From Abditibacteriales bacterium (GTDB taxonomy: Bacteria; Armatimonadota; Abditibacteriia; Abditibacteriales; Abditibacteriaceae), in contig JBBSTH010000003.1 in assembly GCA_038236075.1 (NCBI GenBank), positions 2,426 through 34,425 on the forward strand: DNA of 32,000 bases, read 5' to 3'. Both the position numbers and the translations under genes were made by a program. The notes beneath the pieces are model-generated. The model ran no database searches, had not been told where the DNA came from, and worked only from the letters and a program-made list of their open reading frames with translations. Shown here piece after piece: positions 1-19,769 of the stretch (the first letter of the stretch is position 1; each line of letters begins with the position of its first letter).

Positions 1-1092
1 AAACCTTACGATTGGATTGCCGACGATGACTTACATTTCAGTAAGGACAGCAAGCGTGTGGCCTACTGGGCGGAGCGAGGCGGGAAATATTTCATTGTCA
101 CCAGCGACCAAAGCGGAGCAAAGGAAGTTCCATCTGGTCCCGCTTCGGGCACCAGCACGCGCATGGTGCGCCTCCTGCAGCGCAACGATAAGGAAATGGT
201 TGTGATTGATGGACGTCTCGGCCCGGCCTACGATGGAATTGGATCGGATGAGTTTAGATACAAAACGCCGCTTAGCCCTGACAGAAAGCGCGTGGCCTAT
301 GCAGCACGGCGCGGTAAGAAGTGGATGGCAGTGGTGGATGGAAAAGAAGGCAAAGCCTATGATGCGGTGAGCGAGCTTCTCTTCAGCCCCGACAGTCGGC
401 ACCTTTCCTACATCGCCTACTCAGACGCTCAGAATGGGCAAAGTTTCATGGTGCGGGACGGGCAGGAAAGCAAACCCTTTGAACACAGCATTGTCTCTCC
501 TATTTTCAGCCCCGATAGCCAACATCTGGCCTACATTCTCCGGGGCGATGGCGACGCGGTGGTGCGCGATGGCCAGCAGGGACAGACGTATCCGGTAGTG
601 GAAGGTCTTCGTTTCAGCGCCGACAGCGCGCATCTGCTTTACGACGCGAACCAAGTTGTTCAAGAGAAATTCACGCCGCTGGTAGTGCGCGACGGCAAGG
701 AATATCCCCGCTCCACCGTATGGAGTGCTGATGGAGCGCACACGGCTTCCCTCGCTAAGCGTGACAGTAAAACGCTCGTTGTCCACGATGGTCAGGAAGG
801 CAAGCCCTTTGATGATGTTAACGGTCTGACTTTGGGCCCCGACGGACGCCATTTAGCGTATTGGGCCAAACACGATAACCGTTGGTTTATCGTGGTGGAT
901 GGTGTCGAAGGCAAGTCTTACCTGGACGGGTTAGGCGCCGAACCTTTCCTTATGCCCAGCGAGGAGGAATTTCGGGGAACTACAACTCGGCTCCAACCGC
1001 TTGTTTTCCTTGATGCGAAGACGGTGCAAACTCTGGCGTTGCGCTCCGATAATGAAGTCGTGGGCGTGCGGATTGAAATTGTCGAAGAATAG
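1..1092 (+). CDS. PD40 / WD40-like beta-propeller repeat protein (5' end cut by window edge)
   Basis: Frame 1 is open from nt 1 (KPYDWIADDDLHFSKDSKRVAYWAE...) into the listed 58..1092 ORF. It has at least 6 repeats of the pattern (F/W)S(P/A)D(S/G)xHLxY...VVxDGxEGKxYD, which resemble TolB-type PD40 blades. Stop TAG at 1090-1092. Confidence 0.6.
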   Translation, partial: KPYDWIADDDLHFSKDSKRVAYWAERGGKYFIVTSDQSGAKEVPSGPASGTSTRMVRLLQRNDKEMVVIDGRLGPAYDGIGSDEFRYKTPLSPDRKRVAYAARRGKKWMAVVDGKEGKAYDAVSELLFSPDSRHLSYIAYSDAQNGQSFMVRDGQESKPFEHSIVSPIFSPDSQHLAYILRGDGDAVVRDGQQGQTYPVVEGLRFSADSAHLLYDANQVVQEKFTPLVVRDGKEYPRSTVWSADGAHTASLAKRDSKTLVVHDGQEGKPFDDVNGLTLGPDGRHLAYWAKHDNRWFIVVDGVEGKSYLDGLGAEPFLMPSEEEFRGTTTRLQPLVFLDAKTVQTLALRSDNEVVGVRIEIVEE

Positions 1093-1355: not shown

Positions 1356-2561
1356 ATGTTATCAATTTCATCAAGAATACCACTGGCGCAAATTTTTCTG
1401 TTGACGCTGACGGTCGGCATCGCGAGTGCTTCGTGGGCGCAAACCGAGGATGAAGTATTATGGCAAAAACTCGACATCACGGAAGATGGTTGGCTTGATG
1501 GCAAAGAGCTCGATGAAACTTTGAAAGAATACGATACCGATGGCGACAAGGAAGTCACCAAAGCGGAATTTTTAGCGGGCCGCGCCAAAGCGCGCGACGT
1601 GGGTCATGCCTCGTCGGTCGAAGCAGACACGCAACTCTTCCAAAAAATTGATGCGAGCGAGAACGGTTATTTGTCGGGTAGCGAACTCGACAGCGATAAC
1701 GCCCGCAGCTTCGATGCTAACGGCGATAAGCGCGTGACACTTGAGGAGTTTTTGGCCGGTCGCGCCAAGGAGCGCGGCGTGAGGGCTCTGGTGACCGCAC
1801 CCGCCACGAAAACTCAACCGGTGACGAAACCCGCCGTGAAACCAACGCCAAAAACTGCTGGCAAACCGGCAACACAACCTACGACCGCAACCCAACCGAA
1901 AGAAGCGATGCCCGCGCCCATCGTCATGACGAAAGACAAAATCAACGGCCTGTTTTTCATGACGCGGTTTTGGTCGGGTTCGGGAACTCTGGAAAAAGCG
2001 AGCTGGTATTTCGCACCCGACGGCAAGTATTATCGGGATCTCACAACTGGTTTTTCGAGTGCAGAATTGGCGGCCTTCGACGGCGAAAAAGGCACTTATA
2101 AAGTTGCGGGCAACCTCCTTTCAACAACTCGCAGCAACGGTGAAAAGACCGAAAGTGAAATCGAGCCTTCCACAAATGCCTGGTATTGGAACGGCGGCCT
2201 TTTCACCTCGGTCACGCCGTTCGAGAACGCCACGGAACTGGTCGGCAGCTATGAAGGCGGCGAATCTTCCGTTTATTCCGGCAACGTCGCCACGATTTCC
2301 AAAACGCTGAATTTGCAGCCCAATGGCACTTTTTCCTGGGGTGGGTTGGCCTCGTTCAAAACCAATGGCAATACCACAACCACCAGAACCGCCAGCGAAA
2401 GCACACTTGCTGGCAAATGGAGTCTCTCAGGTTACGTCCTCACGCTCACCACAAACGATGGCCAGGTTACGAAAGGCATTTCATTTCCCTACGACAACGA
2501 AAAAACCGAGATCAAACCCGACCGCTTCTTTTTCGCCGGAACAATGTATAAAAAACAATGA
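1356..2561 (+). CDS. Secreted protein with four EF-hand Ca2+-binding loops, a Pro/Thr/Lys-rich linker and an uncharacterised C-terminal domain
   Basis: ATG at 1356 is preceded by AAGGAA. The signal peptide is MLSISSRIPLAQIFLLTLTVGIASA/SWAQ. There are four canonical 12-residue EF loops: DITEDGWLDGKE, DTDGDKEVTKAE, DASENGYLSGSE and DANGDKRVTLEE. A PATKTQPVTKPAVKPTPKTAGKPATQPTTATQPK linker follows. Confidence 0.75.
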   Translation: MLSISSRIPLAQIFLLTLTVGIASASWAQTEDEVLWQKLDITEDGWLDGKELDETLKEYDTDGDKEVTKAEFLAGRAKARDVGHASSVEADTQLFQKIDASENGYLSGSELDSDNARSFDANGDKRVTLEEFLAGRAKERGVRALVTAPATKTQPVTKPAVKPTPKTAGKPATQPTTATQPKEAMPAPIVMTKDKINGLFFMTRFWSGSGTLEKASWYFAPDGKYYRDLTTGFSSAELAAFDGEKGTYKVAGNLLSTTRSNGEKTESEIEPSTNAWYWNGGLFTSVTPFENATELVGSYEGGESSVYSGNVATISKTLNLQPNGTFSWGGLASFKTNGNTTTTRTASESTLAGKWSLSGYVLTLTTNDGQVTKGISFPYDNEKTEIKPDRFFFAGTMYKKQ

Positions 2562-2875: not shown

Positions 2876-5800
2876 CTACTTCTGCTCCTTTTGATTTTTA
2901 GCCAGCCATTGCTTGAAAGTTGCGCTATCTGGTGGCACCAAACCATTGGCAGCGAACTGTTGCAAGTCAGAGAGAATAACATCAAAAAATCGCTTGCCAT
3001 GCACTTTGGTCTGCTTGTTTTGGCGGCACAGTGCGATGGCTTTATCGAGTTGATCGTTGAAGAGATAACCATGAACCAGATTAACCGCGATCCAAGATTG
3101 GTCGGGTGCCATGGCAAGACCGCGCGAGGCATCGGAGATCGCTTCTTTGGGACGATGGTAAAGCACTTCGAGATAAGCCATTTGTCCCAGCGCCGAAGCC
3201 GCCTGAGGCTGCACCTGGTCTTTAACTGGCGTGTTTTTTAGCAACTCGAATTGTTCCAAACTTTTCCGGTAAGCGGCGCGTGCGGGCAGCAAGTTCCCCA
3301 AGCTTAACTGAGCGTCGCCGATATTGGCGTAGATTTCCAGTAACTCTTGCTGAACTTGCAGATTGCCCTTGTCTTTTGCCAGGTTTTCCAGCAGCGGCAA
3401 ACTTTTAGCGAAGAGAGGCAATGACGCGGCGATTTTCCCTTGCGAAAGCGCGAGCACACCCAGACGATTCCAGCTTGTGCTGAGGTCGTGTTGCGCTTCG
3501 GCGTTACTCTTATCTTTAGCTAATTCCAGAGCAATGTTCAAACTCTTATGAAAGGTTTTGATGGCGGCATCCGTTTGATTTTGCGCCAGTTGCAATTCGC
3601 CAATGCGGTCGTAAACGGCGGATAAATCGCGGAGCGGTTCGGCTGTGGCGGTGCCATCTTTGTGGGCGCGTTTCACCAGTTCAGTCGCCAGCGGCAACGC
3701 CAAATCGTAGGCTTTTCGCGCTTTATCGTAAACCTTTTGATCGAATTGAACATCGCCACTTTTCATGGCGGTTACCAGTAAGTCGCGCTGAGCCTGTGTA
3801 TTTTCCTTGTCTTGGGCCAACACCGCGCGGATATCCCAGGCTTGTGCGTAGGCTTGTGCGGCACCTTTGTCGTCTTTGAGCAATTGCCGCACATCGCCCA
3901 TCTTTTCTAGGCTAACCGATAAATCGCGTTGAGCCGTCGGAGCGAAATCGCCGCGCGCTAAATCGGTGCGAATCGCCAGGCTTTTGGCGAAAAAGTCCTT
4001 CGCTTTTTGCAATTCGTCGGTGGCCTGATAGCTTTCGCCCATTTTTTCGTAGTTAGTTGCCAAATCGCGCCATGCACCGGGAGTTGGTTTATTCTTGGAC
4101 AGTTCCTCGGTAATAGCCAGGCTTTTTTGGTAGGCCGCGCGCGATTGACTCAGATCGCCCAAGGTCTGCCAAGTATCGCCGATACGTTGCAAGTTGACCG
4201 CTTGTTCGCGGCGCGCAGTGGGCGTTTGGGAATCCATCGCCAAAATCCGATCCAGCAGGGCGATGTTTTCCTCAAAAATCGCTTTGATGATCGGGCGACT
4301 TTCCGGGACATCGGCCAGCTTATCCGGAATTTCGTAAGTCCACTTGCCGATGGCATCCAAGGCCAATTTTTTCTGCACTGCCGTCTTTTGCCATTGAAGA
4401 TAGCTAAAAGTGCCAAAACCCGCGATCATCAGGAAAAACGTCGCCAACACGCTACTGATAATCGTCCACTTCTGGCGTCGAGCGCGTCGCACCCGTTGTC
4501 GTGAAGCCTGAATGTATTCGATGGTGTCCGAATCCAAATCGGTCAGGCGCAGACTGATCATATTTTCGGCTTCGGCCAGGGGCATACCCTCGCGCAGCAG
4601 AAAATCCGGGCGTTTATCTTCGGTCTGCCAGTGAGTGACTTCAGCGGTGATACGCGTGCGCGCGCGCAGAAAATCAATGTCGCCCACCAGCCATTCTTGA
4701 AGGCGTGGCCAGTGTCGTAGCAAGGCTTCGTGCGCCACGCGAATCACCGGCTCTGCCGCCGTGGCCCCTGTGCCCTCCGCTTCGTCTACGACCAACAAAC
4801 GGGCGTCAATGAAGGCTTTAATCAGCGTGCGCCGCGCTTCGTTGGTCACCACGCTATTTATCATTACGCGCCGCGCGGCGATGAGGGAATCGCGCTCGGT
4901 GTCAACCGTGACCAGCGCCCGCAAAACGCCCGGCAACTCTGCTTGCGCCGCCTTGGAAAGCGACTGAAAAACGGCTTCGGCACGCTCGGCCAAAGCGCCT
5001 TCCAATCCGCCCAATTGACGATAAGCCTCGAAGGTCAACACGCCTTTTTCTGTGCGGCTTTTGAAGAGTTCATCGAGAGTGAATTGCAACAGGGGCAACG
5101 CGCCGGGGTTTTTGCCAGCGGCATCGTGTAGCACATCGCTGAGGCGTTCTCCGCTGATGGGATCGACTTCAAAACGCAATCCTGCCGCGCGCGTGGGTTG
5201 AATGAGAATTTGGCCGATTTCGGCAAACGTGGGCGGCACCAAATGATATTGGCCGCTTCCTTCCTTGAGCTTCACCAAATCGGGAATTTCGGCGCAGCGA
5301 GCGTAAAAGTCACTGCGCATCGTCGCTATAATGGAAATCAGACCGCTACATGCCAAAACCGACAATACCGCAACAAAGGTTTGGCGTTCCTCTGCGCCCA
5401 GCCAATCGAGCGTGAAAATTTCCTCAAACTGATCCACCAGCAACGCCAGGCGAGCCGCTGGCACCGAAGCGAGTTGTTCCTGTTCTTGAGTCGCTAACGC
5501 CGCCTTTTCCAACGCTGCGTGCAATGAACTCACGGCGCGTTGCGGAGCTTCGCGGAGCAGAGCGGCCAACTCGGCCGCGTCCATGCCGATTTCTGGCAGG
5601 GCTTTGGGTTCGAGTAACGCCAAGGCCAGACCGTAGAGCAGATCATCGGAAGCATCGCTGGGCTTAAAAATGCTCCAACGCCACAGAGCCACGCCTTCGA
5701 CAACGCCCGGTTGAGTGAGCGTCGGCAAAACACCGGCGCGCACCAGAGACGACTTGCCGCTGCCGCTCATGCCGAAAATCATCAGGAACGAACAACCTTG

Positions 5801-7447
5801 AGCGGCATGGCGCACCAGAGCATCTCGAATCTCGCCAATGGCGCGCGTGCGCCCAAAGAAAATCGGGGCGTGTTCCATATCGAAGGCTTCCAGGCCGCGA
5901 TAGGGCGAGCCTTTGTGCCAGCGAATCGCAAAGGTGCCTTCCTCTGCGTCGGAGCTGAATTTTGGCAGGCGTTCTTTGATGAGCTTGCGCAGGTGACTTT
6001 CCAGCAATCGCTCAAATTCATCGGGCGTGGGAAAATTGTGGAAGGCGGCCTTGAACGTTTCCTGGGCGTTGCCAAACCAGCGATCAATGAAGGTATCGAG
6101 CGCCTTTTTTTGCGCGAGGCGTCCGAGCAGAGCCTCTTCATCACTCATGCTCGCCAACGGCTCGGACGATTTGCGGTAGACCATCAAATCGGGCGTGCCG
6201 CGCTCCTGGAACGAAGCCAACGCGTCCTCGAATTCCCATTCGGTGCCAGAAGAATAGAGCGTTCCATCGGAGCGCCGAAACTGTTCCGGCAAGCGCGTGC
6301 CTAACCGTGACCACAAAATACAAATCACGATGTCGGTGGAAGAAGGCGGAATGATTTGTTCTTGAAAATGGCTGGTCGCGCGCAACGGTTCGTGTTCCCA
6401 TAAAATTGGCACCAATTCCACAAAGGCCGCGAATTCGCCCTGCAAGCGTTCCACCACGCGCGTTGCAATTAAACGTTCCTGTCCCACGTCGCCGGGCGAC
6501 GAAATGAAAATTTGCAGCCTTTTCGGGGACGATTCGGCGGGTGGGGTGGACTCCTCGGCAGAAGGCTGGATTTCGGCGCGCGCTGCTACTTTTTCAATTG
6601 CAACCTCTTGAACTGAAACGCCTGTGTTATCGGATTGGGGAAGAATGTGGGCAGATGTCTCACCATCGGCATCGAGAATCGGCGTTTCCGCTTCCTCTTT
6701 ATCGAACAGTTTTTCAGCTTCGTCATGGAGAGCTTCTTCGTGCGCGATGATTTCGGCGTCTTGCTGAGAAATAACGGTCAAAGAACCAGAAACGCCGTTC
6801 GAGCCGTGAAGAGGAACCGGCAAACTTTCGGTAGGATTAACTTCCTCGTCCACATTCGGCGAAGGCAAAGCAAGCGGCGCTAATGTGACGATTTCTGGAA
6901 TGGCATTGGTATTTGAGGGTAATTCTTCAGCGGATTCTTCCGTGACCTCGCTTTCTTGGCTTGGAGCGGCGGGCAAAGCGGGAAGTTCGAGAGCGGCTTC
7001 AATTTGTGGGAAGGTTTGAGCGGGAGCAAAAATCGCGGCCACCGGGGCGCAGCAAAGGAAAATTTTGTCTTCCAGATCGTTGCGCAGCAGGCGAAATTCG
7101 TAAAAATCTACGGGTTGGGCCAGCGTTTTCTGCAAAAGCTCTTCATATTGTTCCAATGTTTCCGTAAGTCCTTCGATGCGGCTAACAACCGTTGAGGTTT
7201 GCGCGGGTGGGCAGTCCGCGAGACGCCATTCTTCCAGGCCGTTGAGTCCGAAGCGAGTCAAGGTGGCACCGTGACGCGCGAGCAGTTCTTCCAGAACCTG
7301 CCCTAATTTGGCTTGTCCTTGGGCGCGCTCTTGCAATTTCGATTCAGAGAGCCGTGCCACCTCCTCCACGAATGAGATGTAATCATCCCATTCGGTCGCT
7401 TCTGCGGGAAGCGTCTTCAATTCGTCGAGCCAGATATTCCATTTCAT
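2876..7447 (-). CDS. Giant STAND-class P-loop NTPase: N-terminal helical domain, acidic disordered linker, DUF4062/TIR-like Rossmannoid domain, nSTAND-type NTPase, one TM helix and a C-terminal TPR array
   Basis: This is the 1533-aa ORF in the track. The listed start at 7477 is TTG. I prefer the in-frame ATG at 7447 (MKWNIWLD...), which is preceded by GAGGGA 5 nt upstream. The motif IFISSPGDVGQER...DIVICILWSRLGT...SGTEWEFEDAL (track aa 320-437) resembles DUF4062. Walker A is FGMSGSGKSSLVRAGVLP; I verified nt 5750-5773 translate to GMSGSGKS. Walker B is LALLVDQFEEIF. The hydrophobic helix is WTIISSVLATFFLMIAGFGTFSYL (nt 4400-4471). About 400 aa of TPR-like repeats follow (xxLGDxxxxxGxxxxAxxxYxKSLxI). 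Confidence 0.85.
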   Translation of the reverse strand: MKWNIWLDELKTLPAEATEWDDYISFVEEVARLSESKLQERAQGQAKLGQVLEELLARHGATLTRFGLNGLEEWRLADCPPAQTSTVVSRIEGLTETLEQYEELLQKTLAQPVDFYEFRLLRNDLEDKIFLCCAPVAAIFAPAQTFPQIEAALELPALPAAPSQESEVTEESAEELPSNTNAIPEIVTLAPLALPSPNVDEEVNPTESLPVPLHGSNGVSGSLTVISQQDAEIIAHEEALHDEAEKLFDKEEAETPILDADGETSAHILPQSDNTGVSVQEVAIEKVAARAEIQPSAEESTPPAESSPKRLQIFISSPGDVGQERLIATRVVERLQGEFAAFVELVPILWEHEPLRATSHFQEQIIPPSSTDIVICILWSRLGTRLPEQFRRSDGTLYSSGTEWEFEDALASFQERGTPDLMVYRKSSEPLASMSDEEALLGRLAQKKALDTFIDRWFGNAQETFKAAFHNFPTPDEFERLLESHLRKLIKERLPKFSSDAEEGTFAIRWHKGSPYRGLEAFDMEHAPIFFGRTRAIGEIRDALVRHAAQGCSFLMIFGMSGSGKSSLVRAGVLPTLTQPGVVEGVALWRWSIFKPSDASDDLLYGLALALLEPKALPEIGMDAAELAALLREAPQRAVSSLHAALEKAALATQEQEQLASVPAARLALLVDQFEEIFTLDWLGAEERQTFVAVLSVLACSGLISIIATMRSDFYARCAEIPDLVKLKEGSGQYHLVPPTFAEIGQILIQPTRAAGLRFEVDPISGERLSDVLHDAAGKNPGALPLLQFTLDELFKSRTEKGVLTFEAYRQLGGLEGALAERAEAVFQSLSKAAQAELPGVLRALVTVDTERDSLIAARRVMINSVVTNEARRTLIKAFIDARLLVVDEAEGTGATAAEPVIRVAHEALLRHWPRLQEWLVGDIDFLRARTRITAEVTHWQTEDKRPDFLLREGMPLAEAENMISLRLTDLDSDTIEYIQASRQRVRRARRQKWTIISSVLATFFLMIAGFGTFSYLQWQKTAVQKKLALDAIGKWTYEIPDKLADVPESRPIIKAIFEENIALLDRILAMDSQTPTARREQAVNLQRIGDTWQTLGDLSQSRAAYQKSLAITEELSKNKPTPGAWRDLATNYEKMGESYQATDELQKAKDFFAKSLAIRTDLARGDFAPTAQRDLSVSLEKMGDVRQLLKDDKGAAQAYAQAWDIRAVLAQDKENTQAQRDLLVTAMKSGDVQFDQKVYDKARKAYDLALPLATELVKRAHKDGTATAEPLRDLSAVYDRIGELQLAQNQTDAAIKTFHKSLNIALELAKDKSNAEAQHDLSTSWNRLGVLALSQGKIAASLPLFAKSLPLLENLAKDKGNLQVQQELLEIYANIGDAQLSLGNLLPARAAYRKSLEQFELLKNTPVKDQVQPQAASALGQMAYLEVLYHRPKEAISDASRGLAMAPDQSWIAVNLVHGYLFNDQLDKAIALCRQNKQTKVHGKRFFDVILSDLQQFAANGLVPPDSATFKQWLAKNQKEQK

Positions 7448-7694
7448 AAATCCCTCAATTTCCTGTTTTTTGAACAAAAATTAAAAACTGCGATGGCACA
7501 ATTCACTTTTGCGTGCGTTATGTGTTATATTTTCTCTTAAGTGAGTGTTTATCGCAGTATAAATGTATTGGCAGAGAGTATTTTTGTGACAAGAAATCTT
7601 TGATGTCGAGAATTCAATTTTAAACTTGTCAATATCTTGTTTCCCCTGCCAAATATGTTTGCGCTGACTGTTTATTGTTGCCAAAAGGATTTGC
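7448..7694. promoter_or_regulatory. AT-rich divergent promoter region between the STAND gene (-) and the 7695 gene (+)
   Basis: This 247-nt non-coding gap is clearly more AT-rich than its flanks and separates two divergently oriented genes. It contains several TATAAT-like hexamers (TATAAA, TTATAT, AAATAT). No single -35/-10 pair is convincing. Confidence 0.4.
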
Positions 7695-8876
7695 ATGACC
7701 AACCTCAAAATCTGCCGACTTGCTACAAAAACCTCCGTTGTCACACTTCTCGTTTTTGGTTTGACCGCTTCTGCCAGCAACGCAGTAGAACTCATCGGGC
7801 AAACCGCCAAGTTCTCTCGCTCCACATCGCTGGCAATGTGCGAAAAGTCGGCGCCGATTTACCGCTTTGGCGAAACGGATTGGCGCTTGGCCAGTCGCGC
7901 TGGTGCAACTTCTTCAAAGGGAGCGAAGATTCGTCCGTGTGTTACAGGGGAAGATCAACTGCCAGGCGAAGTTCCTGTGTTGCCTTTGGGAGAACCTGTT
8001 ATTCGTTCGCTTGCTCTGGAAGCACCGCCCTCACCGGCGCCCGCAGAGCCGACAGATGTTGTTGAAAATGGGCCGCAATCTGTGCTGGTCGTTCCCCTGG
8101 CAACAGAAGAGGAGAAACCGGCTCCGGCGACTTTACAAGATCGGTTTGAGCAGTTAAATCAGCGTCTTAAAACTGTGCAAGGCGTGGAAGAAGCCGACTT
8201 GCATCCCCTGTTGTTGTCGCTGCCCAGTTTGACTTCCAACATTCCCACCGCTTACGGCGGTTCGTTGGGCACCATTGGCGTGGGCATTGGTTATCAAGAT
8301 CGGCCTCGGTTCGGCAGCAAAGGCGATGGAGACTTGGGCGTGGTTCTCGGTCTGGGCAACCCCAAAAAAATCGGTTTTGATTTGCAGTTGACGAGTCTGG
8401 ATATTTCCCAGCCAACCCATGATCTTGCCATTGGATTTAAGCTGCACCGAGTGCTACCGCGAGATTACGTCGTCGCCCTGGGATTGGAAAATGAGACGTT
8501 TCGCGGCTCTTCCGATAGCGTCCACAGTTGGTATGGAGTGGTTACCAAAAAAATTAATCTTAAGGAGAGCCGCCGTGAGATGTTCAGCCGCCTTTATCTC
8601 ACTGCCGGACTGGGAAGTGGACGTTTCAAAAAGGATTTTGATACTGTCCGGGGCGGAACGGGAACTCTGAATGTCTTTGGCGGCGCGGCTCTGAGCCTGG
8701 GCGAGCCAGCCACCGTCTTCTTAGAGTGGGGCGGCCAAGACCTCAATATCGGCGCTTCTCTTGTGCCCTTTCGCAATCAATCCATTGTCATCACGCCCAC
8801 CATCGCCGATGTCACGGGATCTGCTGGTAATGGCCGGCGCTTTCTGCTGACTGTCGGTTACTTTTTTGCGCGCTAA
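7695..8876 (+). CDS. Secreted hypothetical protein, possible outer-membrane beta-barrel
   Basis: ATG at 7695 is preceded by AAGGA. The signal peptide is MTNLKICRLATKTSVVTLLVFGLTASASNA. The C-terminal 230 aa are Gly-rich with alternating hydrophobic beta-strand patterns and end in ...LLTVGYFFAR. I recognise no family. Confidence 0.6.
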   Translation: MTNLKICRLATKTSVVTLLVFGLTASASNAVELIGQTAKFSRSTSLAMCEKSAPIYRFGETDWRLASRAGATSSKGAKIRPCVTGEDQLPGEVPVLPLGEPVIRSLALEAPPSPAPAEPTDVVENGPQSVLVVPLATEEEKPAPATLQDRFEQLNQRLKTVQGVEEADLHPLLLSLPSLTSNIPTAYGGSLGTIGVGIGYQDRPRFGSKGDGDLGVVLGLGNPKKIGFDLQLTSLDISQPTHDLAIGFKLHRVLPRDYVVALGLENETFRGSSDSVHSWYGVVTKKINLKESRREMFSRLYLTAGLGSGRFKKDFDTVRGGTGTLNVFGGAALSLGEPATVFLEWGGQDLNIGASLVPFRNQSIVITPTIADVTGSAGNGRRFLLTVGYFFAR

Positions 8877-8898: not shown

Positions 8899-9459
8899 AT
8901 GTCAGGCATCTCTCAATTTCTTCGTCCTTACCTTGTCTTAGTATTCGTGGCAGTTTGTGGAACTTTGGCTTCTTCTGCGGCTTGGGGCCAGTCAGGAGGC
9001 AATACTAACTCGCACAGTTATTTTGCCTCGGATACGAGTTTGCCGTTACCGTTTCCCCAAATTGAGCCGCCGTTGGATTTCGAGTCGTTTCCAAACGGAG
9101 TGCCCCGTCTTCCGATTACGCCAGTCAGCGAAATTCTACAAACCGATCTCCTTTCGCCCAATCTTCAGCGCACGGCTTTGGACTTCAATTCAAGCATCAA
9201 TGCATTAATGCCTTTTGCGGGGTGTGCCAACACGAATTGGGCCGCATATAACAAAGCCATTAAAATCGCCGCTCAGTTGCGAACTTCTCTTTCCGAAGAA
9301 GTTGCGGCCCAACAAAAAGCTCTGGCAAAGGACAGTTCGCCAGAGCGGATCGCGCAAGCGGAAAAAGCGGCTTTGGTCATCGAAAATACGACCACCGCAC
9401 TCGAAAAAGCGACGCAAGTTTTGGTTGATTTGGGCAAAGTATTCGACAAAGCTCGGTAA
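8899..9459 (+). CDS. Secreted hypothetical protein with a helical C-terminal half
   Basis: The track ORF starts at 8866 with TTG. The in-frame ATG at 8899 has a strong GGAGG 8 nt upstream and yields a clean signal peptide, MSGISQFLRPYLVLVFVAVCGTLASSAAWG. Stop TAA at 9457-9459. Confidence 0.6.
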   Translation: MSGISQFLRPYLVLVFVAVCGTLASSAAWGQSGGNTNSHSYFASDTSLPLPFPQIEPPLDFESFPNGVPRLPITPVSEILQTDLLSPNLQRTALDFNSSINALMPFAGCANTNWAAYNKAIKIAAQLRTSLSEEVAAQQKALAKDSSPERIAQAEKAALVIENTTTALEKATQVLVDLGKVFDKAR

Positions 9460-9553: not shown

Positions 9554-10354
9554 TCAACCGTTGCAATCGCACTTCCGGCTCGGCGGAGTGGCTTTAGAAG
9601 AGGACGCCGACGACGGCACCATTTGAGCCTGAGATTGCAACTGGATTGGGCCTAAGAGTCCTGCCTGTCCCTCCAGAGAAATGCTTTCCACCTTTGCAGC
9701 AGCGTCAAAGGTAGGTTGCAGCTCTTTGTTGGGAGTGGGACTCTCCAACGCCTTGCGCCACTCCAGCAGCGGACTCAAGTTCGGCACTGCCGAGGGGGCC
9801 GACGGAGGAGAACCGGGATAAACGGTGCTTTGCTGAGATTCGTGGACCAGCACATCGCCACAGGGATTATAAATTTCCACGGTGCCTTCGATGACCGTCA
9901 CAGTCGTGGTGCCATCATCAGCGACATCAAGTAAGAATTCGGTGCCCTTAACGCGCATCAGAGCAGTGCGCGTTGCCACGATCCTACCGGGTTGAAGCCG
10001 AACCGCCATTCGTCCCTGCAAAGCTCGAAAAAGTGGTTTTCCTTTACCTGCGGAACCGTTTGCCGTTATTTCAATTGAGGCGCCGGAGTTCATTTCCACC
10101 CGCGAACCATCTTTAAAACGCAAAGAGGTGCGGACGCCTTTGGGCGACACGACAACATCGCCCGCATAAACACGGTCGTTGGCGCGCAACTGAGTTGTGG
10201 TGCGGACACCCTTGCGCTGCACTAAGACATTGCCAGTTACGGTGCCAACAGGTTCAGGGGCTGCCCAACCGCTGTAGAACAGAGTTGAGCCTCCACCTGC
10301 GATCAGGCACATTACTGCTGCCTGTGCGAAGTAATTTTGTCGAGAAACTCTCAT
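9554..10354 (-). CDS. FecR-domain secreted/periplasmic protein
   Basis: ATG at 10354 is preceded by AAGGAAAAC. There is an N-terminal hydrophobic signal (AQAAVMCLIAGGGSTLF). The central pattern is FecR-like: L..NDRVYAGDVVVS..GVRTSLRFKDGSRVEMNSGASIEI...MRVKGTEFLLDV...TVTVIEGTVEI. Confidence 0.7.
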   Translation of the reverse strand: MRVSRQNYFAQAAVMCLIAGGGSTLFYSGWAAPEPVGTVTGNVLVQRKGVRTTTQLRANDRVYAGDVVVSPKGVRTSLRFKDGSRVEMNSGASIEITANGSAGKGKPLFRALQGRMAVRLQPGRIVATRTALMRVKGTEFLLDVADDGTTTVTVIEGTVEIYNPCGDVLVHESQQSTVYPGSPPSAPSAVPNLSPLLEWRKALESPTPNKELQPTFDAAAKVESISLEGQAGLLGPIQLQSQAQMVPSSASSSKATPPSRKCDCNG

Positions 10355-10553: not shown

Positions 10554-12563
10554 CTATCCGGCGTGTGGCACTTCGAGTGGGCGTTCGCGGTGCAACATCA
10601 CCCAGTCGCCATTTTCGGCCAGGGCTTCGCGGCCCAGTTCGTGAAGCAAGGTCGAAGTCTTATGGGAGTGTCCCACCGACAGTTGGGCTTCGAGTTCCTG
10701 GCAAGCGGTTTCAAAGAGTGTGCCCATGCGTCCGTAGCGTTTGGAATGTTCGGCGCGCGCCATCAGCGCATTATATCCGTGCAGCAAACCGGCGGTGACG
10801 GCGAGCATCACGATACAAATCATGATTAGAGCGTGCGTGAGCGGCACTTCGACCATCGCTTTGAACGGCTCCAGCAACGGTAGCGGCAAAAGAGAGGGCA
10901 ATGTCAGCAGTAACCCAAGCGCAACCGACAACGCGATGCTGGCGACGACCAAAGCGCCGATCAGTTTTTCCTGTTTCTCTAACTCGTGGTGTTCGCGGTG
11001 CGCTTTGCTCACATAGTAATTGCGTTGATCTTGTGCCCAACTCTGCACGATCAGCGACAACGGTGCGGATGTGTGAGGCGCCGACTTTTGCTGCGCATCA
11101 GCCAGCACGTTGCAGCTTTTAATGGCGTGACGAATCCAGTTGAGTTCGCCGCGCTGTTTGCCCAGATAATGATCGCTCACGTCGTCGCGCAGACCCGCCA
11201 AACGCCAGTAAATCTGCACGCGCAACCCTTCGGCCAGGGCGCGGTAATCTTGATATTTGGTTTGTAACTCTTGCTTTTCGGTGCGTCCGTGCAACACGAC
11301 ATTGACGACCACTAAAAGAAGATAAAGCCATAAAAACCAGGGCAGCAACGACCATAACGACGCCAGCGAAAAGCCACCGTGCGATTCATCGGATGTTTCG
11401 ACAGGGAGAATTTCTCCGTGCGTCTCAGATACCGTGGGGGCGGCGTGGCTGGTGCTGCCGTGTTCGGCAGTAGCGGGCACATCGGCACCAATTGCAGCTT
11501 CGTGTTCCGTTGGTGAGGTAACAGCAGATGTCGCGTGTGAGGAATTCCCGGTTTCGTGATGAGTGCCGTGCGGCAGCGAGTGAAACAGGTTGAAACTCAA
11601 CGCGGCAAAAAACACGAGCAGAAAGACTCGTCGCGTAGCGTGCGCCATTTGGCGCGCGAAAACGCTCGACATCGCGTCCGACCAGCCGTAAATGGTCATC
11701 GGAAAACGCAGATTATCGGGAATCTCCGTGTTGCTAGCGGTTTCCGCGTTGTCGGCGGACGCGATGAGATAGTTCGCATTGCGCTGGGCGCTATCGCCCA
11801 GGGTCGCTCGCAGTTTTTGAACGTCGGCATTGAAAGCATCAATGCGACTAAAATCTTCTGCGGCTTCTGCGTTGGGTTTGATGTGAAGCGAGAAGGGTTC
11901 GCCCGCGCCTGCGGACAAGGGGCGCGACTGGCGCGGTGTCACGAGATGATGGACGGCGCCATATCCGGCGCGTTCGAGCGGCGAAATCACCGGCCCGTAG
12001 GGCGGCGGCGCGCCGTGCAAGCGCAAGCGCACGATATGTGCGGTGCCTCCGGTGCGCTCGTGTTCGGGCAAGTCGTCACCGTCCCACAGCGCCAGCAAAA
12101 TGTGGCTGTAACGCGCCAGATATGCGCCCATTGCGGCGTATTGCCCCTCGATTTGCGCTTGGGTTAGTTCGCCCGCAGCCATGCGATTTTCCTCCTCGCT
12201 GCCCGCCACCCAAGGCAAGGTAAACACTTCGCTGGCGCGTTCGAGCAAACCGGCAAATTCGGCGCGCGATTCGTCACTGCTGAAACTCTTTTCATACTGT
12301 TGACGTGGCAAGGGCAAGGGCACGATCAAGGCACAGCCTTCTTCCAGTGCTACGCACGCGATAAGGCGGTCGGCGCCCTCGCCCAGAGGAGAAAGCACGA
12401 TGAGCGGCGTGTGAGGATAGCGCGCGCGAAACGCGCGCAGTTCGCGCCGCACAACCTCGCGTAGCGGCTCGATGTCTTGCGGGCGCAAATCGCTGTGGCC
12501 GGTGATGCCCACGAAAAGCGGCAACAGATCAGAAGGCAAATCGGCGGAAGAGGAAGGAGTCAT
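10554..12563 (-). CDS. SLOG-like Rossmannoid (putative nucleotide-sensor) domain fused to two 2TM hairpins (SLATT-like putative membrane effector)
   Basis: 669-aa ORF with ATG at 12563. Residues 14-210 show a strand/helix pattern: FVGITGH, LSPLGEGADRLIACVAL, ALIVPLPL and ILLALWDGD...TGGTAHIV. This resembles SLOG/LOG/YpsA-type folds, where the GGT loop corresponds to the PGGxGT loop of LOG. Four hydrophobic helices lie at aa 311-330, 401-425, 534-555 and 575-597. Each pair is followed by an amphipathic helix (KYQDYRALAEGLRVQIYW; ARAEHSKRYGRMGTLFE), as in SLATT/DUF4231-type modules. The CDS call is strong. The domain assignment is inference. Confidence 0.8.
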   Translation of the reverse strand: MTPSSSADLPSDLLPLFVGITGHSDLRPQDIEPLREVVRRELRAFRARYPHTPLIVLSPLGEGADRLIACVALEEGCALIVPLPLPRQQYEKSFSSDESRAEFAGLLERASEVFTLPWVAGSEEENRMAAGELTQAQIEGQYAAMGAYLARYSHILLALWDGDDLPEHERTGGTAHIVRLRLHGAPPPYGPVISPLERAGYGAVHHLVTPRQSRPLSAGAGEPFSLHIKPNAEAAEDFSRIDAFNADVQKLRATLGDSAQRNANYLIASADNAETASNTEIPDNLRFPMTIYGWSDAMSSVFARQMAHATRRVFLLVFFAALSFNLFHSLPHGTHHETGNSSHATSAVTSPTEHEAAIGADVPATAEHGSTSHAAPTVSETHGEILPVETSDESHGGFSLASLWSLLPWFLWLYLLLVVVNVVLHGRTEKQELQTKYQDYRALAEGLRVQIYWRLAGLRDDVSDHYLGKQRGELNWIRHAIKSCNVLADAQQKSAPHTSAPLSLIVQSWAQDQRNYYVSKAHREHHELEKQEKLIGALVVASIALSVALGLLLTLPSLLPLPLLEPFKAMVEVPLTHALIMICIVMLAVTAGLLHGYNALMARAEHSKRYGRMGTLFETACQELEAQLSVGHSHKTSTLLHELGREALAENGDWVMLHRERPLEVPHAG

Positions 12564-12607: not shown

Positions 12608-14386
12608 TCAATCTGCGGCAGTTTCTTCAACAGAAGCATTGAGACGAAGCACCTGAAAACCGGCACCGGCCAGAAACGCCGGAATCGCGCGCACGACATT
12701 GCGATTCCAGTCGCGCATATTCTCGGGTAATTCATCCCACGTCACCAAATTCGGGTTGGTTCTGCGTTGATTATCGCGCGGCCCGGTTTTCCAGCCCGTT
12801 GCCAACCGTTCTTTCGTCCAGCGAGTGTGTTCCAATTTTGCCATGAGTTCAACTTCGGCGGGCGTAAATTCGTGAGTGCGTGCGTCCCAATCCCACAGCG
12901 GCGCAATGTCGCAGCCGATGGCCGCCAACTTTTCGCCGATGTGCAACGCCTGCGCGCGATTCGATTCGCGCGCTTCTTCAGGCAACTCGTCCCACGGCAC
13001 CAAAAGCCCGTTGGAGCCAGTTTGTGCGGCTTCTTCTTGATCTTCCAGATAGCGTTCGTGGAGCGCGCGCGCCAACAATTCCGGCACTCCGCCCAACACC
13101 AAATCGGGTTGACAGGCACGCTCCATCAATCCCAGCGCGTGTAGCGTTTCAAAGCGCCGACCGGAGCCACGAATTTCGCGCAGCAATGAAGTTAGTCCCG
13201 AGTCCTCCTGCATCGCAGCCACGACGGGCACACCCGTCACGCGTAAACGCCCGTGCAACGCCAGTGCTGCCGCCAAACTCGCCGCGTCATCGGGCAAGCA
13301 GACGTAAACCCGCGAAACGCACGGCTCGCCGTCTTCATCGAACAAAAACTGAGCGCGATGGAACTCTGGATCGCCTGCATCGAGCGAGAGCGTGGACAAC
13401 TCACACGTTGCGCTCAGTTCGGGATGGCGCAGATGCAACAGTTCGGCAATCCGTTCGGCGTTGCGGTCTATGAGCAGACAACGCAATTTCTCGCGCTCTT
13501 GCGGAGGCGATGACTGGGGCGCATCATGCCAGGCGCGCGCGCTGTGGACGAGCAAACTGCGCCCCAGCCGGCCCGCTCCCACGATGAGCAGCTGCGGAGC
13601 GCCTGACGCGGGCAGCGAAAACGCCGGATGTTCGTCGAGCAAGGCGCGCGCGGCAGAGTCCACCAGATTGAAGAATTGTAGGCGAAACGAGCCGCTTGCG
13701 GAGATTTCCCATTCGCGCAAAAGCGCCCACAGGTCGGCGTCCACGATGTGAACGCTGCACACCAACGGATCGCCCGAAGGGCGCCGCGTCGCGCAATCGC
13801 GGGCGCGCGCGGCGATTTCGGCGTTGATGCCATCGTCGCCGCATAAGGCGATCACCGTCTGCGCGCGCGCGATACCCGCGTTTTCCAGAAGAATACGCTC
13901 GCGCGGATCGCCCAACAGCACAATCGCGCCCAACTCGCGCGCGACTGGCACGAAATCGTTGTTTTCGTCGCTTTCCAGGGCCACGACCTGCACGCCGCGC
14001 TCGCAAAAAGCGCGCACCAAAAGCAAGCCGCGTTTGTCCAGTCCACAGACGATGATGTGATGTTTGAAACGGCGCAGACGGAGTTGTTGCCAGCCGTCGC
14101 CCCGCACCAGAAACGAAGCAATGGCCGCGGTTAAAAACGAGAGCGCGCCGATGCCCGCGAACATCAAAAACAGCGCGATCAAGCGCCCGCCCAACGTGCG
14201 CGGAAATACGTCGCCATAACCGATGGTCGTTACCGTCACCATCGCCCACCAGAAGCTGTCCCACAACGAAAGTTGAGGCGAAACCGGCTTCTCGAAGTGA
14301 TAAAATCCCAGCGCGCACGCCACGACCAAAACCATCAACGCGCCCAAAATGGCGGCGACAAGCGAGTTTTTACCCGGTTTGTTCAT
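12608..14386 (-). CDS. 2TM K+ channel fused to an RCK/TrkA-N domain, a second Rossmann-like domain and two C-terminal RyR (ryanodine-receptor repeat) domains
   Basis: ATG at 14386. The selectivity filter is VTVTTIGYGDVFP; I verified nt 14210-14230 translate to TTIGYGD. Hydrophobic helices flank it. The RCK motif is HIIVCGLDKRGLLLVRAF..GVQVVALESD. The second GxGxxG motif is LLIVGAGRLGRSLL. Two RyR-like repeats follow: LARALHERYLEDQ...LVPWDELPEEARESNRAQALHIGEKLAAIG and MAKLEHTRWTKERLATGWKTGPRDNQRRTNPNLVTWDELPENMRDWNRNVVRAIP. Confidence 0.9.
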   Translation of the reverse strand: MNKPGKNSLVAAILGALMVLVVACALGFYHFEKPVSPQLSLWDSFWWAMVTVTTIGYGDVFPRTLGGRLIALFLMFAGIGALSFLTAAIASFLVRGDGWQQLRLRRFKHHIIVCGLDKRGLLLVRAFCERGVQVVALESDENNDFVPVARELGAIVLLGDPRERILLENAGIARAQTVIALCGDDGINAEIAARARDCATRRPSGDPLVCSVHIVDADLWALLREWEISASGSFRLQFFNLVDSAARALLDEHPAFSLPASGAPQLLIVGAGRLGRSLLVHSARAWHDAPQSSPPQEREKLRCLLIDRNAERIAELLHLRHPELSATCELSTLSLDAGDPEFHRAQFLFDEDGEPCVSRVYVCLPDDAASLAAALALHGRLRVTGVPVVAAMQEDSGLTSLLREIRGSGRRFETLHALGLMERACQPDLVLGGVPELLARALHERYLEDQEEAAQTGSNGLLVPWDELPEEARESNRAQALHIGEKLAAIGCDIAPLWDWDARTHEFTPAEVELMAKLEHTRWTKERLATGWKTGPRDNQRRTNPNLVTWDELPENMRDWNRNVVRAIPAFLAGAGFQVLRLNASVEETAAD

Positions 14387-14410
14387 AATTTCGACGGCGC
14401 GCTTGCGCCG

Positions 14411-14552
14411 TTAAAACTTATGCAGCAAGAGAACCCGGAGCGGCAGCGACATGGCTTACAGTGCGACGTGGCTTACTGCACACAAGGCCAACTCCCCTGA
14501 CTTCGTCGGGTGCCCGCTTCCGCTCCGGGTTCTCTTGCTGATTAAGTTTTAA
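14411..14552. repeat. 142-nt long inverted repeat (33-nt arms, 76-nt core) in the intergenic leader of the K+ channel gene; structured RNA element or MITE-like insertion
   Basis: Arm 14411-14443 (TTAAAACTTATGCAGCAAGAGAACCCGGAGCGG) pairs with arm 14520-14552 at 31 of 33 positions, with one 2-nt internal mismatch. Pairing extends 4 bp further (14445-14448 / 14515-14518). The core carries a 14-nt direct repeat, GCGAC(A/G)TGGCTTAC, at 14446-14459 and 14463-14476. Confidence 0.8.
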
Positions 14553-14638
14553 ACAGTTCTCTCCAAGCAAACAAAAGCCGTTGGATGCGCGCCTTTTGCG
14601 CTGGTCTTCCACTCCCGAAATCGCGCCGATTCCCTGCT

Positions 14639-15526
14639 CTACTCGTCCAGCATTTTTATCGCTTGTTTCAGACTCCGTTGCATCCGGTTGAACGAGCTGG
14701 AAAGCATGGCGATTTCATCTTTGCCGTTGACTGGTAAATCTTCGACTTCCAAATTGCCTTTGGAAATTTCGTCCGCTGAGCGCGCCAATTGTTTGACCGG
14801 TGCCACAACAACACTGCGCAACATCAGGTTTAAAATCAGCAGCGTTAACAGCAAAATTCCCGCGAGTGCGCCCATCATAAGGCCCGTGATTTTGCGCGCG
14901 ATTTGTTCGGGAATGCCGACAGGCACCGAAACGATTTGCGCTCCGATGACCGAGTGCAATTTCCAGTTGAAACCGTTTTTCGAGCCGTAATCGTGAATCA
15001 TGGAAGCGGGCGCGACATTGGGTGTGCTATGGCAACTCAAGCACGACTGTTGCGTGACGCGGAGCGGGCGCGACATATAAAAGTAACGGCCTTTCGGCGT
15101 ATCGCGCAAACCGACGACCTCTTTGAGATTACCGTTTTTCTGGAAACTCTTGATGATGCTGGCTTCCCAGTCCACCGCCAAATCTTTGGTGTTGGTTGGG
15201 TTGAGCGTGGCCTCACGATAAAAATAATCGGGATAACGCTCCTGCATATAAGAAAAAACTTTTTGTGACGAAAACGCGGGAACGGTTTCGGGCACGAACT
15301 TGCCGTTGCGTTGCGACGGCAAAATCGGTTTGATTTGGTTCGAGGTATATTTGCGAACGGCGAGCGCATTTTCCATCATCAGGCGCGCATTGCCGGTCAC
15401 GATCTGACGCGCTTGTTGTTGCAACAAGGCATTGAAAACCGTCCCCGCGCCTACAATGCTCACCGCGAATACCACGAAGAAAACCAGATTGAACTTGGAC
15501 GCCAGGCGCCAGGAAGAAAAATTCAT
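14639..15526 (-). CDS. Membrane-anchored DUF3365 (Tll0287-like c-type heme) sensor domain plus HAMP domain, with no output domain
   Basis: The track start at 15565 is GTG. I prefer the in-frame ATG at 15526 (MNFSSWRLASKFNLVFFVVFAVSIVGAG, a signal anchor). The heme-c motif CLSCH is verified at nt 15029-15043. A second TM helix is ITGLMMGALAGILLLTLLILNLML. The HAMP motif is VVAPVKQLARSADEISKGNLEVEDLPVNGKDEIAMLSSSFNRMQRSL. The protein ends 8 aa after HAMP. Confidence 0.8.
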   Translation of the reverse strand: MNFSSWRLASKFNLVFFVVFAVSIVGAGTVFNALLQQQARQIVTGNARLMMENALAVRKYTSNQIKPILPSQRNGKFVPETVPAFSSQKVFSYMQERYPDYFYREATLNPTNTKDLAVDWEASIIKSFQKNGNLKEVVGLRDTPKGRYFYMSRPLRVTQQSCLSCHSTPNVAPASMIHDYGSKNGFNWKLHSVIGAQIVSVPVGIPEQIARKITGLMMGALAGILLLTLLILNLMLRSVVVAPVKQLARSADEISKGNLEVEDLPVNGKDEIAMLSSSFNRMQRSLKQAIKMLDE

Positions 15527-15624
15527 AGGAAAGAGAAAGAAGATGAGGTCACTATCGAATGGCACGCAGTTGTAAATCGAAAAGAAGCAGCGAAAGCTCG
15601 CTCGAAAGGTTTGACATTGGGCGA

Positions 15625-16557: not shown

Positions 16558-16599
16558 GAGAAACTTCGCCGGTTACGCGCGAGCGAAAACGACGTTAAT

Positions 16600-16881
16600 T
16601 TATTTGGCGATGCGAAACCCCATTGCCAACATGGTTTTGATGACCTGTTGCGCCACAACGCGATCATAATCTTTCTCGCTTTCGGAAAGCTCTTCGTAAG
16701 GCACAAGTCCCGGATGCTCTTTACGTTGATCGTCTCGATGCGGCCCATAGAGCCAACCGTCATCCAGACGTTGTTTTGCCCACACCTCGTGGGTATTAAT
16801 GGCGATTTCCTCCAGCAAAGCGGCGATTGATTCATCCAATTCGATATGGGAAGTATCAATCGGAGTAGGAATGTAACGCAT
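16600..16881 (-). CDS. Stand-alone RyR-domain protein (about 93-100 aa)
   Basis: The sequence ...LLEEIAINTHEVWAKQRLDDGWLYGPHRDDQRKEHPGLVPYEELSESEKDYDRVVAQQVIKTMLAMGF matches the RyR-repeat consensus (HE.W...R...GW.yG......k.hP.lvpY.eL.e.eK..dR). The start is ambiguous: ATG at 16881 (used here) or in-frame GTG at 16902 (track). Confidence 0.8.
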   Translation of the reverse strand: MRYIPTPIDTSHIELDESIAALLEEIAINTHEVWAKQRLDDGWLYGPHRDDQRKEHPGLVPYEELSESEKDYDRVVAQQVIKTMLAMGFRIAK

Positions 16882-16916
16882 GAAATTAGGCGCTTTTGGC
16901 ACAGCAATCCCTCTAA

Positions 16917-16945: not shown

Positions 16946-17000
16946 CATTTTGACGATTTTCGGGCCAACCCAGTTGTGGCACGATCTCACACGATTCCCT

Positions 17001-19742: not shown

Positions 19743-19769
19743 GGTGTTGATTGTGGGATTGTGGGATTA

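Follow-up and report, generated by a model that had tools for sequence, protein, structure and literature searches.

The stretch of DNA analysed here, 32,000 nucleotides from an Abditibacteriales bacterium (contig JBBSTH010000003.1 of assembly GCA_038236075.1; hereafter the window), carries on its minus strand, at positions 2876-7447, a gene for a large multidomain protein that we propose to be a membrane-spanning receptor of the STAND/NLR type. The list of open reading frames gives it as a single frame, 2876-7477, which starts at a TTG and encodes 1533 residues; translation probably begins at the ATG at 7447, which is preceded by GGAAATTGAGGGATTT and has a GAGGG ribosome-binding site 7 nt upstream, to give a product of 1523 residues, and an identical protein (P0001) is found in public data on a Logan contig and on an NCBI contig. 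From the N- to the C-terminus the receptor consists of a helical domain, an acidic linker, a NIR/DUF4062-like domain, an nSTAND1 NTPase, a transmembrane (TM) helix and a TPR array. An earlier reading of the locus made from the DNA letters (the sequence-only reading) had described an effector-like Rossmannoid domain followed by a STAND NTPase and a repeat array, an order that is borne out by Pfam, by the motifs and by the structure model. The motifs quoted in it are present (IFISSPGDVGQER at aa 313-325, SGTEWEFEDAL at aa 400-410, LLVDQFEE and the hydrophobic helix), its description lacked the first 310 residues, i.e., the helical domain and the acidic, proline-rich linker, and its Walker A lysine K575 and suggested residue ranges follow the 1533-residue TTG numbering, the lysine being K565 in the 1523-residue protein. 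Between orthologues, identity falls from 72-76% in the NIR-like domain to 58-63% in nSTAND1 and 39-47% in the TPRs and is lowest in the N-terminal domain, at 31-36%, a gradient that fits conservation of the enzyme and the switch and a faster evolution of the parts on the outside. A sequence search with the whole protein against the PDB returned an engineered TPR protein as its sole match, and an NCBIfam scan gave TPR-type noise only.

The predicted effector of the receptor is the TIR-like NIR/DUF4062-like domain at aa 310-498 (positions 5954-6520, minus strand), which was delimited by Pfam, structure prediction, Foldseek and PADLOC. DUF4062 (PF13271) is the sole Pfam family found for this region, the match running over aa 312-409 and over model positions 1-82 of 82, and its score, 19.4 bits when the whole protein is scanned and 22.8 bits when the domain is taken by itself, lies below the gathering score of 24.7; 20 of 24 diverse family members match DUF4062 at E<=0.01, the best with an E of 1.1e-5. 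Neither of the canonical TIR families (PF01582 and PF13676) was matched at E<=0.1 in scans of the whole protein or of the domain by itself, and the N-terminus of the PADLOC candidate PDC-S60 matches the region with an E of 3e-7. The AlphaFold2 (AF2) model of aa 305-520 (pLDDT 79.9) shows a 5-stranded parallel beta/alpha sandwich, TIR/flavodoxin-like, with a long helical tail. The likeness to TIR domains and deoxyribosyltransferases proposed in the sequence-only reading appears among the Foldseek matches to the PDB, which are weak (TM-scores of 0.34-0.53 for TIR domains), include the plant TIR 4c6t_D, the TIR-STING 9lmq_B and the nucleoside 2'-deoxyribosyltransferase 8qc0_A, and are mixed with other, generic flavodoxin-like folds so that they do not discriminate; the cryo-EM structure of Swarozyc is not among them. 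A profile of the region found nothing meaningful among PDB sequences, hhalign comparisons of the family profile with a single bona fide DUF4062 protein (P0290) and a single TIR protein (P0277) were not significant (Neff 2.6 vs 1), and the hidden Markov model (HMM) of the family, run with filters off against bona fide DUF4062 sequences, gave a weak, motif-level alignment that was likewise not significant. The alignments behind the structure models of this study are shallow, comprising 24 and 8 sequences.

The candidate catalytic residue of this domain is E405, the central glutamate of GTEWEFEDA (codon at 6233-6235, minus strand), which is kept in 110/110 homologues within the motif G-[TS]-x-[WFY]-E-[FL], with E403 and E407 each varying in a few of them; the loss of catalytic residues from orthologues, which the sequence-only reading had said would speak against its proposal, is thus not seen. 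The AF2 model puts E405 into the first turn of helix alphaC. Its distance from the start of the domain is about 94 residues, and the residue aligns by eye with the glutamate of the bona fide DUF4062 proteins P0290 (SYTQFEF) and P0298 (SITHLEF). The acidic TEWE motif to which the sequence-only reading pointed therefore stands as regards its glutamate, which is invariant and lines up with the catalytic one of DUF4062/NIR, and the family assignment drawn from it is the part that Pfam places below its cutoff. Three preprints of 2026 describe DUF4062, which they rename NIR, as a TIR-like NADase whose catalytic glutamate is needed for anti-phage defence; the residues reported are E97 of KpSwz, E98 of Vulcan, E103 of VstA and E108 of PsAvs2, all four at positions equivalent to that of E405, and E1008 of human TEP1, and the proteins in which DUF4062 is such an effector include Vesta and Swarozyc. 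The same preprints report DUF4062 as the N-terminal domain of an Avs2 protein and of further NLR-like proteins, whose repeats vary, and every DUF4062 domain tested so far has caused NAD+ depletion with abortive infection or toxicity. The receptor most probably belongs to the DUF4062/NIR superfamily, and its NIR-like module is predicted to be a NADase effector that would act through E405.

The NTPase that follows (aa 515-947, positions 4607-5905, minus strand) matches Pfam nSTAND1 (PF20703) with 324.8 bits against a cutoff of 27.1 (E 1.5e-96), over model positions 1-378 of 379, and by this match the receptor is a member of nSTAND1. Inspection of its motifs places Walker A, GMSGSGKSS with the lysine K565, at aa 559-567 (5747-5773, minus strand) and Walker B, LLVDQFEE, at aa 669-676 (5420-5443, minus strand); GK[ST] is kept in 107/110 homologues, and DQxEE, read as a strict pattern, in 90/110. 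The clade owes its name to Kaur et al. (eLife 2021; PMC8195603), who placed it among the STAND NTPases of predicted conflict systems; its effectors vary, with TIR, DRHyd, caspase or EAD modules at the N-terminus, and repeats or FGE-type domains serve as sensors. As far as the predicted cytoplasmic half of the protein is concerned, the sequence-only reading agrees with the current literature because of these reports on the DUF4062 NADase and on nSTAND1.

Between the NTPase and the TPRs lies a single TM helix, WTIISSVLATFFLMIAGFGTFSYL, at aa 994-1017 (4397-4468, minus strand), which has a Kyte-Doolittle 19-mer score of 2.01 and is preceded by the basic stretch RQRVRRARRQK. The helix is a feature of the family at large. 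Of the 120 closest homologues, whose phyla include Abditibacteriota, Armatimonadota, Pseudomonadota and Planctomycetota, 116 have by inspection one strongly hydrophobic 19-mer at the matching place behind the NTPase. Among the 110 of them that were scored for hydropathy, the segment lies at a median of 682 residues after the start of the NIR domain and reaches at least 1.6 in 107. The flanks of the helix carry a positive-inside bias, the 15 residues before it being richer in lysine and arginine than the 15 after it in 97/110 (means 5.24 vs 2.94). The helix is kept whatever C-terminus follows, be it TPRs, WD40 repeats (P0041, P0073 and P0075), a caspase (P0083) or CHASE2 (P0086). In P0086 the position of the TPRs is taken by CHASE2, a domain well established as an extracytoplasmic sensor, which follows the TM helix and precedes three further TM helices in the canonical layout of such a sensor. 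An ATP-dependent NTPase and a NAD+-consuming domain must be cytoplasmic, so that the stretch of some 500 residues beyond the helix is expected in the periplasm. The single-pass topology with the N-terminus inside and the C-terminus outside is well supported by these sequence features, whereas the function is inferred; most likely the TPR sensor is periplasmic and the approximately 990 N-terminal residues are cytoplasmic.

The predicted periplasmic sensor itself, a TPR array with a conserved C-terminal cap, occupies aa 1060-1523 (2879-4270, minus strand) and is among the most divergent regions between orthologues. Pfam TPR families are found between aa 1085 and 1480, with TPR_12, TPR_8 and TPR_2 above threshold and TPR_1 also matched. 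In independent support of the topology, a search restricted to the TM helix and TPRs showed that the same cassette is reused behind other outputs, its relatives being TIR-TM-TPR proteins (P0277, P0279 and P0283), a bona fide DUF4062-TM-TPR protein (P0290, with a DUF4062 score of 46.5 bits), receptor kinases of the Ser/Thr-kinase-TM-TPR form (P0307 and P0316) and caspase-TPR proteins (P0292, P0294 and P0297) that begin with an N-terminal signal peptide and so would be exported whole. Since the cassette is common to several TM-linked outputs and to exported caspases, it would be an extracytoplasmic sensor module, and the sharing of it by modules of the TIR, DUF4062, kinase and caspase kinds points to a general toolkit of extracytoplasmic sensors.

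At the other end of the receptor, aa 1-145 (7013-7447, minus strand) form an all-helical domain, an unnamed and mobile module recognised by conservation among orthologues and by profile search. It is present only in the long-form orthologues, which are those accompanied by the envelope partners described below, and is conserved among them at 29-35% identity. In a profile search of 1.84 billion cluster representatives it was found in 332 at E<=1e-3, often at or near the N-terminus of uncharacterised proteins of 1700-2150 residues that have an AAA_22-type P-loop (the carriers include P0129-P0276). The domain has no name in Pfam (E<=5), PADLOC or NCBIfam and matches no named family by profile against the PDB, and PADLOC and NCBIfam scans of the proteins that carry it returned nothing. 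It is followed by a low-complexity linker at aa 146-309 (6521-7012, minus strand), rich in acidic residues, proline, alanine and serine (E 16%, A 13%, P 11%, S 10%), whose length varies among orthologues and whose type recurs after the same domain in unrelated proteins. The domain could plausibly be an adaptor or have a regulatory role; as regards the idea of an EAD-type adaptor, no homotypic partner of the domain was found within +/-10 kb of the orthologous loci at E<=1e-3.

The receptor gene is separated from its divergent neighbours by an AT-rich intergenic region of 247 bp (7448-7694), with 33.6% GC as against 54% for the window and with three promoter-like sites on both strands where 0.8 would be expected. 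On the other side it faces the convergent gene of an exported EF-hand protein (1356-2561, plus strand), whose signal peptide ends in ASA|SWAQ. The convergent gene and the AT-rich divergent promoter region were both correctly recognised in the sequence-only reading. The divergent spacers of three orthologous loci (L002:9876-10000, L006:9876-10000 and L007:9874-10000) have in common an inverted repeat resembling TCACAGCGGTTTACGGCTGTACCGTGA, a possible operator; in an alignment of the divergent intergenic regions this palindrome is not evident in the longer spacer of the window. Beyond the EF-hand gene lies a gene for a PD40/Tricorn-like beta-propeller (58-1092, plus strand), and a PD40 gene is found downstream of the orthologue at L002, beside FecR-TPR and CHASE2-guanylate-cyclase genes; a literature search found no description of the combination of FecR, CHASE2 and CHAT modules.

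Three genes on the far side of the spacer encode proteins predicted to act in the envelope. The first (7695-8876, plus strand) encodes an exported protein of 393 residues with a signal-peptide-like N-terminus and a C-terminal outer-membrane beta-barrel of 12 strands. The barrel is seen in the AF2 model of aa 148-393 (246 residues, pLDDT 75), for which all 50 top Foldseek matches in the PDB are outer-membrane barrels (OmpG 2f1c with an E of 1.7e-5, KdgM, FapF, PelB and OMPLA); no named family was found with Pfam at E<=5, PADLOC or a profile search against the PDB, so that it is recognised only by structure prediction. Its syntenic orthologues share 44-55% identity, and its distant homologues have a C-terminal aromatic-x-F beta-signal and, in one case, an SLH domain. 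The second gene (8899-9459, plus strand) is recorded as overlapping the end of the barrel gene (7695-8876) and is therefore probably co-transcribed with it. Its product, as judged from the translation and an alignment of five orthologues, is an exported protein of 186 residues with a signal peptide that ends in a site of the A-x-A|Q type (AWG|Q in the copy of the window) and a conserved C-terminal helical domain; every orthologue ends in a variable residue followed by D-K-A-R (...LGKVFDKAR in the window). It has no match in Pfam, the PDB or PADLOC and is syntenic, with 31-51% identity, in all genomes that carry the block. The third gene (9554-10354, minus strand) encodes a protein with an N-terminal hydrophobic anchor or signal and a FecR domain at aa 66-160 (Pfam FecR, E 4.5e-12), for which the public gene call starts later and gives 252 aa; its syntenic homologues share 42-52% identity and are present in 6/7 genomes, the exception being L007. 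FecR domains are periplasmic signal-transfer modules.

Together these genes form a block, in which the nSTAND1 gene is divergent from the barrel and 186-residue genes and the FecR gene follows, and which is found in seven distinct Abditibacteriaceae genomes. The six further genomes encode full-length orthologues of the receptor with 47-50% identity and partner proteins with 31-55% identity, and the genes that lie farther out are not the same in the various genomes while the block is kept. The description of the gene as a monocistronic singleton accordingly holds for monocistronic and fails for singleton, since the gene is part of a conserved four-gene block. Other members of the family occur in different company. 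In the complete genome of an Abditibacteriota strain (AP024152, L005:5188-13729), a short-form paralogue lacks the barrel, 186-residue and FecR partners and stands in an apparent operon of an exported WD40 protein, the NIR-nSTAND1-TM-TPR protein and an exported C14 caspase-like peptidase, which suggests a periplasmic protease partner for this subfamily. Members with WD40 or CHASE2 in Halomonas (CP071922, L008:2530-14098) and at L009:5964-11192 are encoded directly downstream of TPR-S/MAP3K_TRAF_bd-domain proteins, with a TIR-TPR protein and two peptidoglycan amidases encoded nearby in Halomonas, and more distant family members adjoin TIR-TPR, TPR-S and cyclase genes. A short-form paralogue of 1164 residues with 51% identity (P0010) apparently comes from the same contig as the window; it was not located, and its record suggests two family members within 50 kb.

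The genes beyond the block are of a different kind. In a protein of 669 residues (10554-12563, minus strand) the N-terminus is weakly SLOG-like (YAcAr, E 0.028), and DUF4231, a SLATT-type effector domain with two TM helices, is matched below threshold (22 bits vs 24.7); the protein could be a nucleotide-sensing membrane effector, and its gene is not conserved beside the receptor orthologues. The run of minus-strand genes at 12608-17774, the TIR/RyR cluster of the sequence-only reading, is specific to the version of the locus found in the window's genome and comprises a K+-channel/TrkA_N/RyR-domain protein (12608-14386), a Tll0287-like protein with HAMP (14639-15565), a TIR_2 protein (15625-16557) with domain-level PADLOC matches to SAVED-TIR and ThsB models, a small RyR-domain open reading frame (16512-16907, per the public gene call) and a bestrophin-like channel (17001-17774). 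The distance of about 3 kb to this cluster given in the sequence-only reading applies to its first gene only (10554-12563), and the TIR gene lies 8.2 kb away. The defence-island context is weak, no neighbour matching a known defence system beyond this domain-level TIR match. From 17862 to 31992 the genes, all on the minus strand, are those of ordinary metabolism and encode GlcNAc 2-epimerase-like, isoamylase/GH13, DJ-1/PfpI and SnoaL-like proteins, a GMC oxidoreductase, an NmrA-like protein, two TTHB210-like proteins, a possible porin-like protein of 475 residues and a thiamine-pyrophosphate (TPP) enzyme; there are no integrases or transposases in this run, and nothing suggests a mobile island.

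On balance we consider it somewhat probable that the protein is a single-pass inner-membrane receptor of the STAND/NLR type, with a periplasmic TPR sensor and with nSTAND1 and NIR as its cytoplasmic output. What the analysis shows are the domain identities, the conserved helix with its charge bias, the conserved glutamate and P-loop, the cassette shared with other TM-linked outputs and the gene block; the periplasmic location, the NADase activity, the trigger, contacts with the partner proteins and an immune role are inferred. In such a mechanism the periplasmic TPR array would bind a cue on the envelope side, and in Abditibacteriaceae the barrel, the 186-residue protein and the FecR protein would probably be involved, possibly by delivering or modulating that cue. 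The ligand would cluster the external repeats and the signal would cross the membrane by proximity, as in Toll-like receptors and receptor kinases; proximity would then allow a nucleotide-dependent oligomerisation of the nSTAND1 modules, which would assemble the NIR domains and permit hydrolysis of NAD+ via E405, with growth arrest or death, or a nucleotide signal, as the outcome. A more specific form of this proposal, which we put forward only tentatively, is that the receptor represents an undescribed class of bacterial pattern-recognition receptor, an NLR with a sensor that faces the periplasm and that answers by STAND-gated depletion of cytoplasmic NAD+. Such a receptor would detect invaders or damage while they are still at the envelope, through cues such as the tail or ejection proteins of phages, enzymes of predators, toxins or pieces of peptidoglycan, and in Abditibacteriaceae the barrel, a periplasmic adaptor and a FecR-domain relay would be its dedicated helpers.

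Several points weigh against the proposal of a periplasm-facing receptor with a NADase output. The TM and signal-peptide calls were made from hydropathy, charge bias and inspection, the whole clade is known from sequences and models, and a STAND ring would have to form with the C-terminal side of each module anchored in the membrane. Membership in DUF4062 is sub-threshold, the hhalign and family HMM comparisons are not significant and the Foldseek matches to TIR domains are weak. The block is confined to one bacterial family, and because no nSTAND1 gene is encoded within 9 kb of the barrel homologues of Cyanobacteria, Rhodothermales, Gemmatimonadota and Salinivenus, the linkage is lineage-specific; shared descent and not function could explain part of the synteny. 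Finally, no known defence system adjoins the gene, and its context thus lends little support to an immune role.

The alternatives can be weighed against the same evidence. The main one, which we hold to be rather unlikely, is that the receptor serves non-immune signalling across the envelope, in response to envelope stress, to a nutrient or surface cue or to cell-cell or kin recognition, or in developmental death in aggregating bacteria; it would work in a FecA-FecR-like manner with the barrel and the FecR protein, and the NIR domain would be a maker of signalling nucleotides or a scaffold, not a killer. Such a role would account for the co-conservation of a FecR domain with an outer-membrane barrel and the receptor, and it is consistent with immediate neighbours of the block that are not known defence genes, with the occurrence of the same TPR cassette in Ser/Thr receptor kinases, with related members that adjoin cyclase or TPR-S signalling proteins and with the interspersion of defence and non-defence clades in the 2026 survey of STAND proteins. 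It sits less well with the DUF4062 domains tested, all of which deplete NAD+ and cause abortive infection or toxicity (2026 preprints), and with the invariance of the catalytic glutamate; paralogues and relatives are, moreover, paired with caspases and TIR-TPR proteins, typical effectors of conflict systems, the sensor region is among the fastest-diverging parts, as in immune receptors, and the small 12-stranded barrel shows no sign of a TonB-dependent transducer, with no ECF sigma factor nearby. Improbable, in our view, is a membrane-tethered scaffold that is degenerate or non-enzymatic, in which the NADase has been lost, the helix is only an anchor and the synteny reflects phylogenetic inertia. 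The sub-threshold DUF4062 score, the weak structural matches and the restriction of the block to Abditibacteriaceae are what such a scaffold would predict, but the NIR domain is the most conserved part of the protein, with 72-76% identity where the TPRs share 39-47%, its Gly-Thr-x-aromatic-Glu motif is invariant across phyla in a pattern typical of an active site under purifying selection, and the block is retained where its outer flanks have been reshuffled.

The interpretation preferred in the sequence-only reading, that of a cytosolic singleton resembling Avs/AVAST, whose TPRs would directly bind a conserved phage protein in the cytoplasm and which would then oligomerise and fire its N-terminal effector, seems to us very improbable. 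In its favour, effector, STAND and TPR stand in the same order as in Avs, an Avs2 protein is documented to carry a DUF4062 effector, and the monocistronic gene has a promoter region of its own. Against this stands the family-wide hydrophobic helix with its positive-inside flanks between the NTPase and the TPRs, a single span that leaves only one of the two in the cytoplasm; relatives of the TPR cassette are exported or belong to receptor kinases, nSTAND1 is a clade distinct from the Avs NTPases, and the gene is not a singleton. No PADLOC model of Avs/AVAST (types 1-5) was matched at E<=0.1, the scan returning the N-terminus of PDC-S60, a generic TPR model and a weak mad8 match. The label Avs-like is therefore not upheld: a receptor whose TM helix places its TPRs outside the cytoplasm cannot sense cytosolic phage proteins as Avs does, and it is not a member of Avs1-5.

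If the proposal of a periplasm-facing, NLR-type receptor is correct for this widespread clade, bacteria could couple extracytoplasmic recognition to suicide or signalling of the NLR style, and the separation known from animals between surface (TLR-like) and cytosolic (NLR-like) receptors would fail in prokaryotes. The bacterial NLR-like immune receptors characterised to date (Avs, bNACHT and related STANDs) are, to our knowledge, all soluble, and they detect phage proteins once the genome is inside the cell. A literature search found no description of transmembrane STAND sensors, and a TM helix after nSTAND1, a periplasmic sensor of this kind or a linkage to barrel and FecR genes is undescribed in the open-access papers and preprints consulted, among them the 2026 survey of 589 STAND clades and the DUF4062 preprints; the nearest precedent is a study of diversity-generating retroelements (PNAS 2024) that predicts periplasmic C-type-lectin sensors for some of their STAND/NACHT targets. 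The receptor would be a natural test bed for the activation of a STAND NTPase across a membrane, and the barrel, the small exported protein and the FecR-domain protein are concrete, testable partners.

Among known systems the closest in domain order is PsAvs2 of Pseudomonas chlororaphis (bioRxiv 10.64898/2026.09.04.749371), which likewise has an N-terminal DUF4062-type domain with a conserved glutamate, a central STAND module and C-terminal TPR-like repeats, an oligomerisation-driven depletion of NAD+ being the output to be expected of such a protein. In contrast to PsAvs2, which is soluble and senses a cytoplasmic phage terminase, the receptor has a conserved TM helix and repeats predicted to lie outside the cytoplasm, nSTAND1 in place of the NTPase of Avs2, one further domain at the N-terminus and three conserved exported partners. 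With the nSTAND1 conflict systems (PMC8195603) it shares a full-length, high-scoring nSTAND1 module. FecA-FecR-FecI offers a parallel in that a barrel, a periplasmic FecR-domain protein and a transducer spanning the inner membrane are encoded together, but the barrel of the window is a 12-stranded one resembling OmpG and KdgM and not a 22-stranded TonB-dependent transducer, its FecR protein has no cytoplasmic anti-sigma domain, the predicted output is a STAND-NADase and not transcription, and neither a sigma factor nor a TonB-dependent receptor is encoded in the window. Receptor Ser/Thr kinases and TIR-TM-TPR proteins, known from sequences, have the same succession of a cytoplasmic output, a TM helix and external TPRs, with a kinase or a canonical TIR domain as the output and without the NTPase switch of the receptor. 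The analogy with Toll-like receptors is one of logic, in which a single-pass protein would have solenoid repeats outside, a TIR-type domain inside and activation by ligand clustering, and it implies no homology of the whole proteins. The receptor differs from them in its opposite polarity, with the N-terminus in the cytoplasm, in having TPRs instead of leucine-rich repeats, in the STAND module placed between the TM helix and the TIR-like domain and in a TIR-like domain that is predicted to be an enzyme and not an adaptor, so that, if the proposal holds, the topology of Toll-like receptors, the switching of NLRs and TIR-type enzymology would be combined in one polypeptide.

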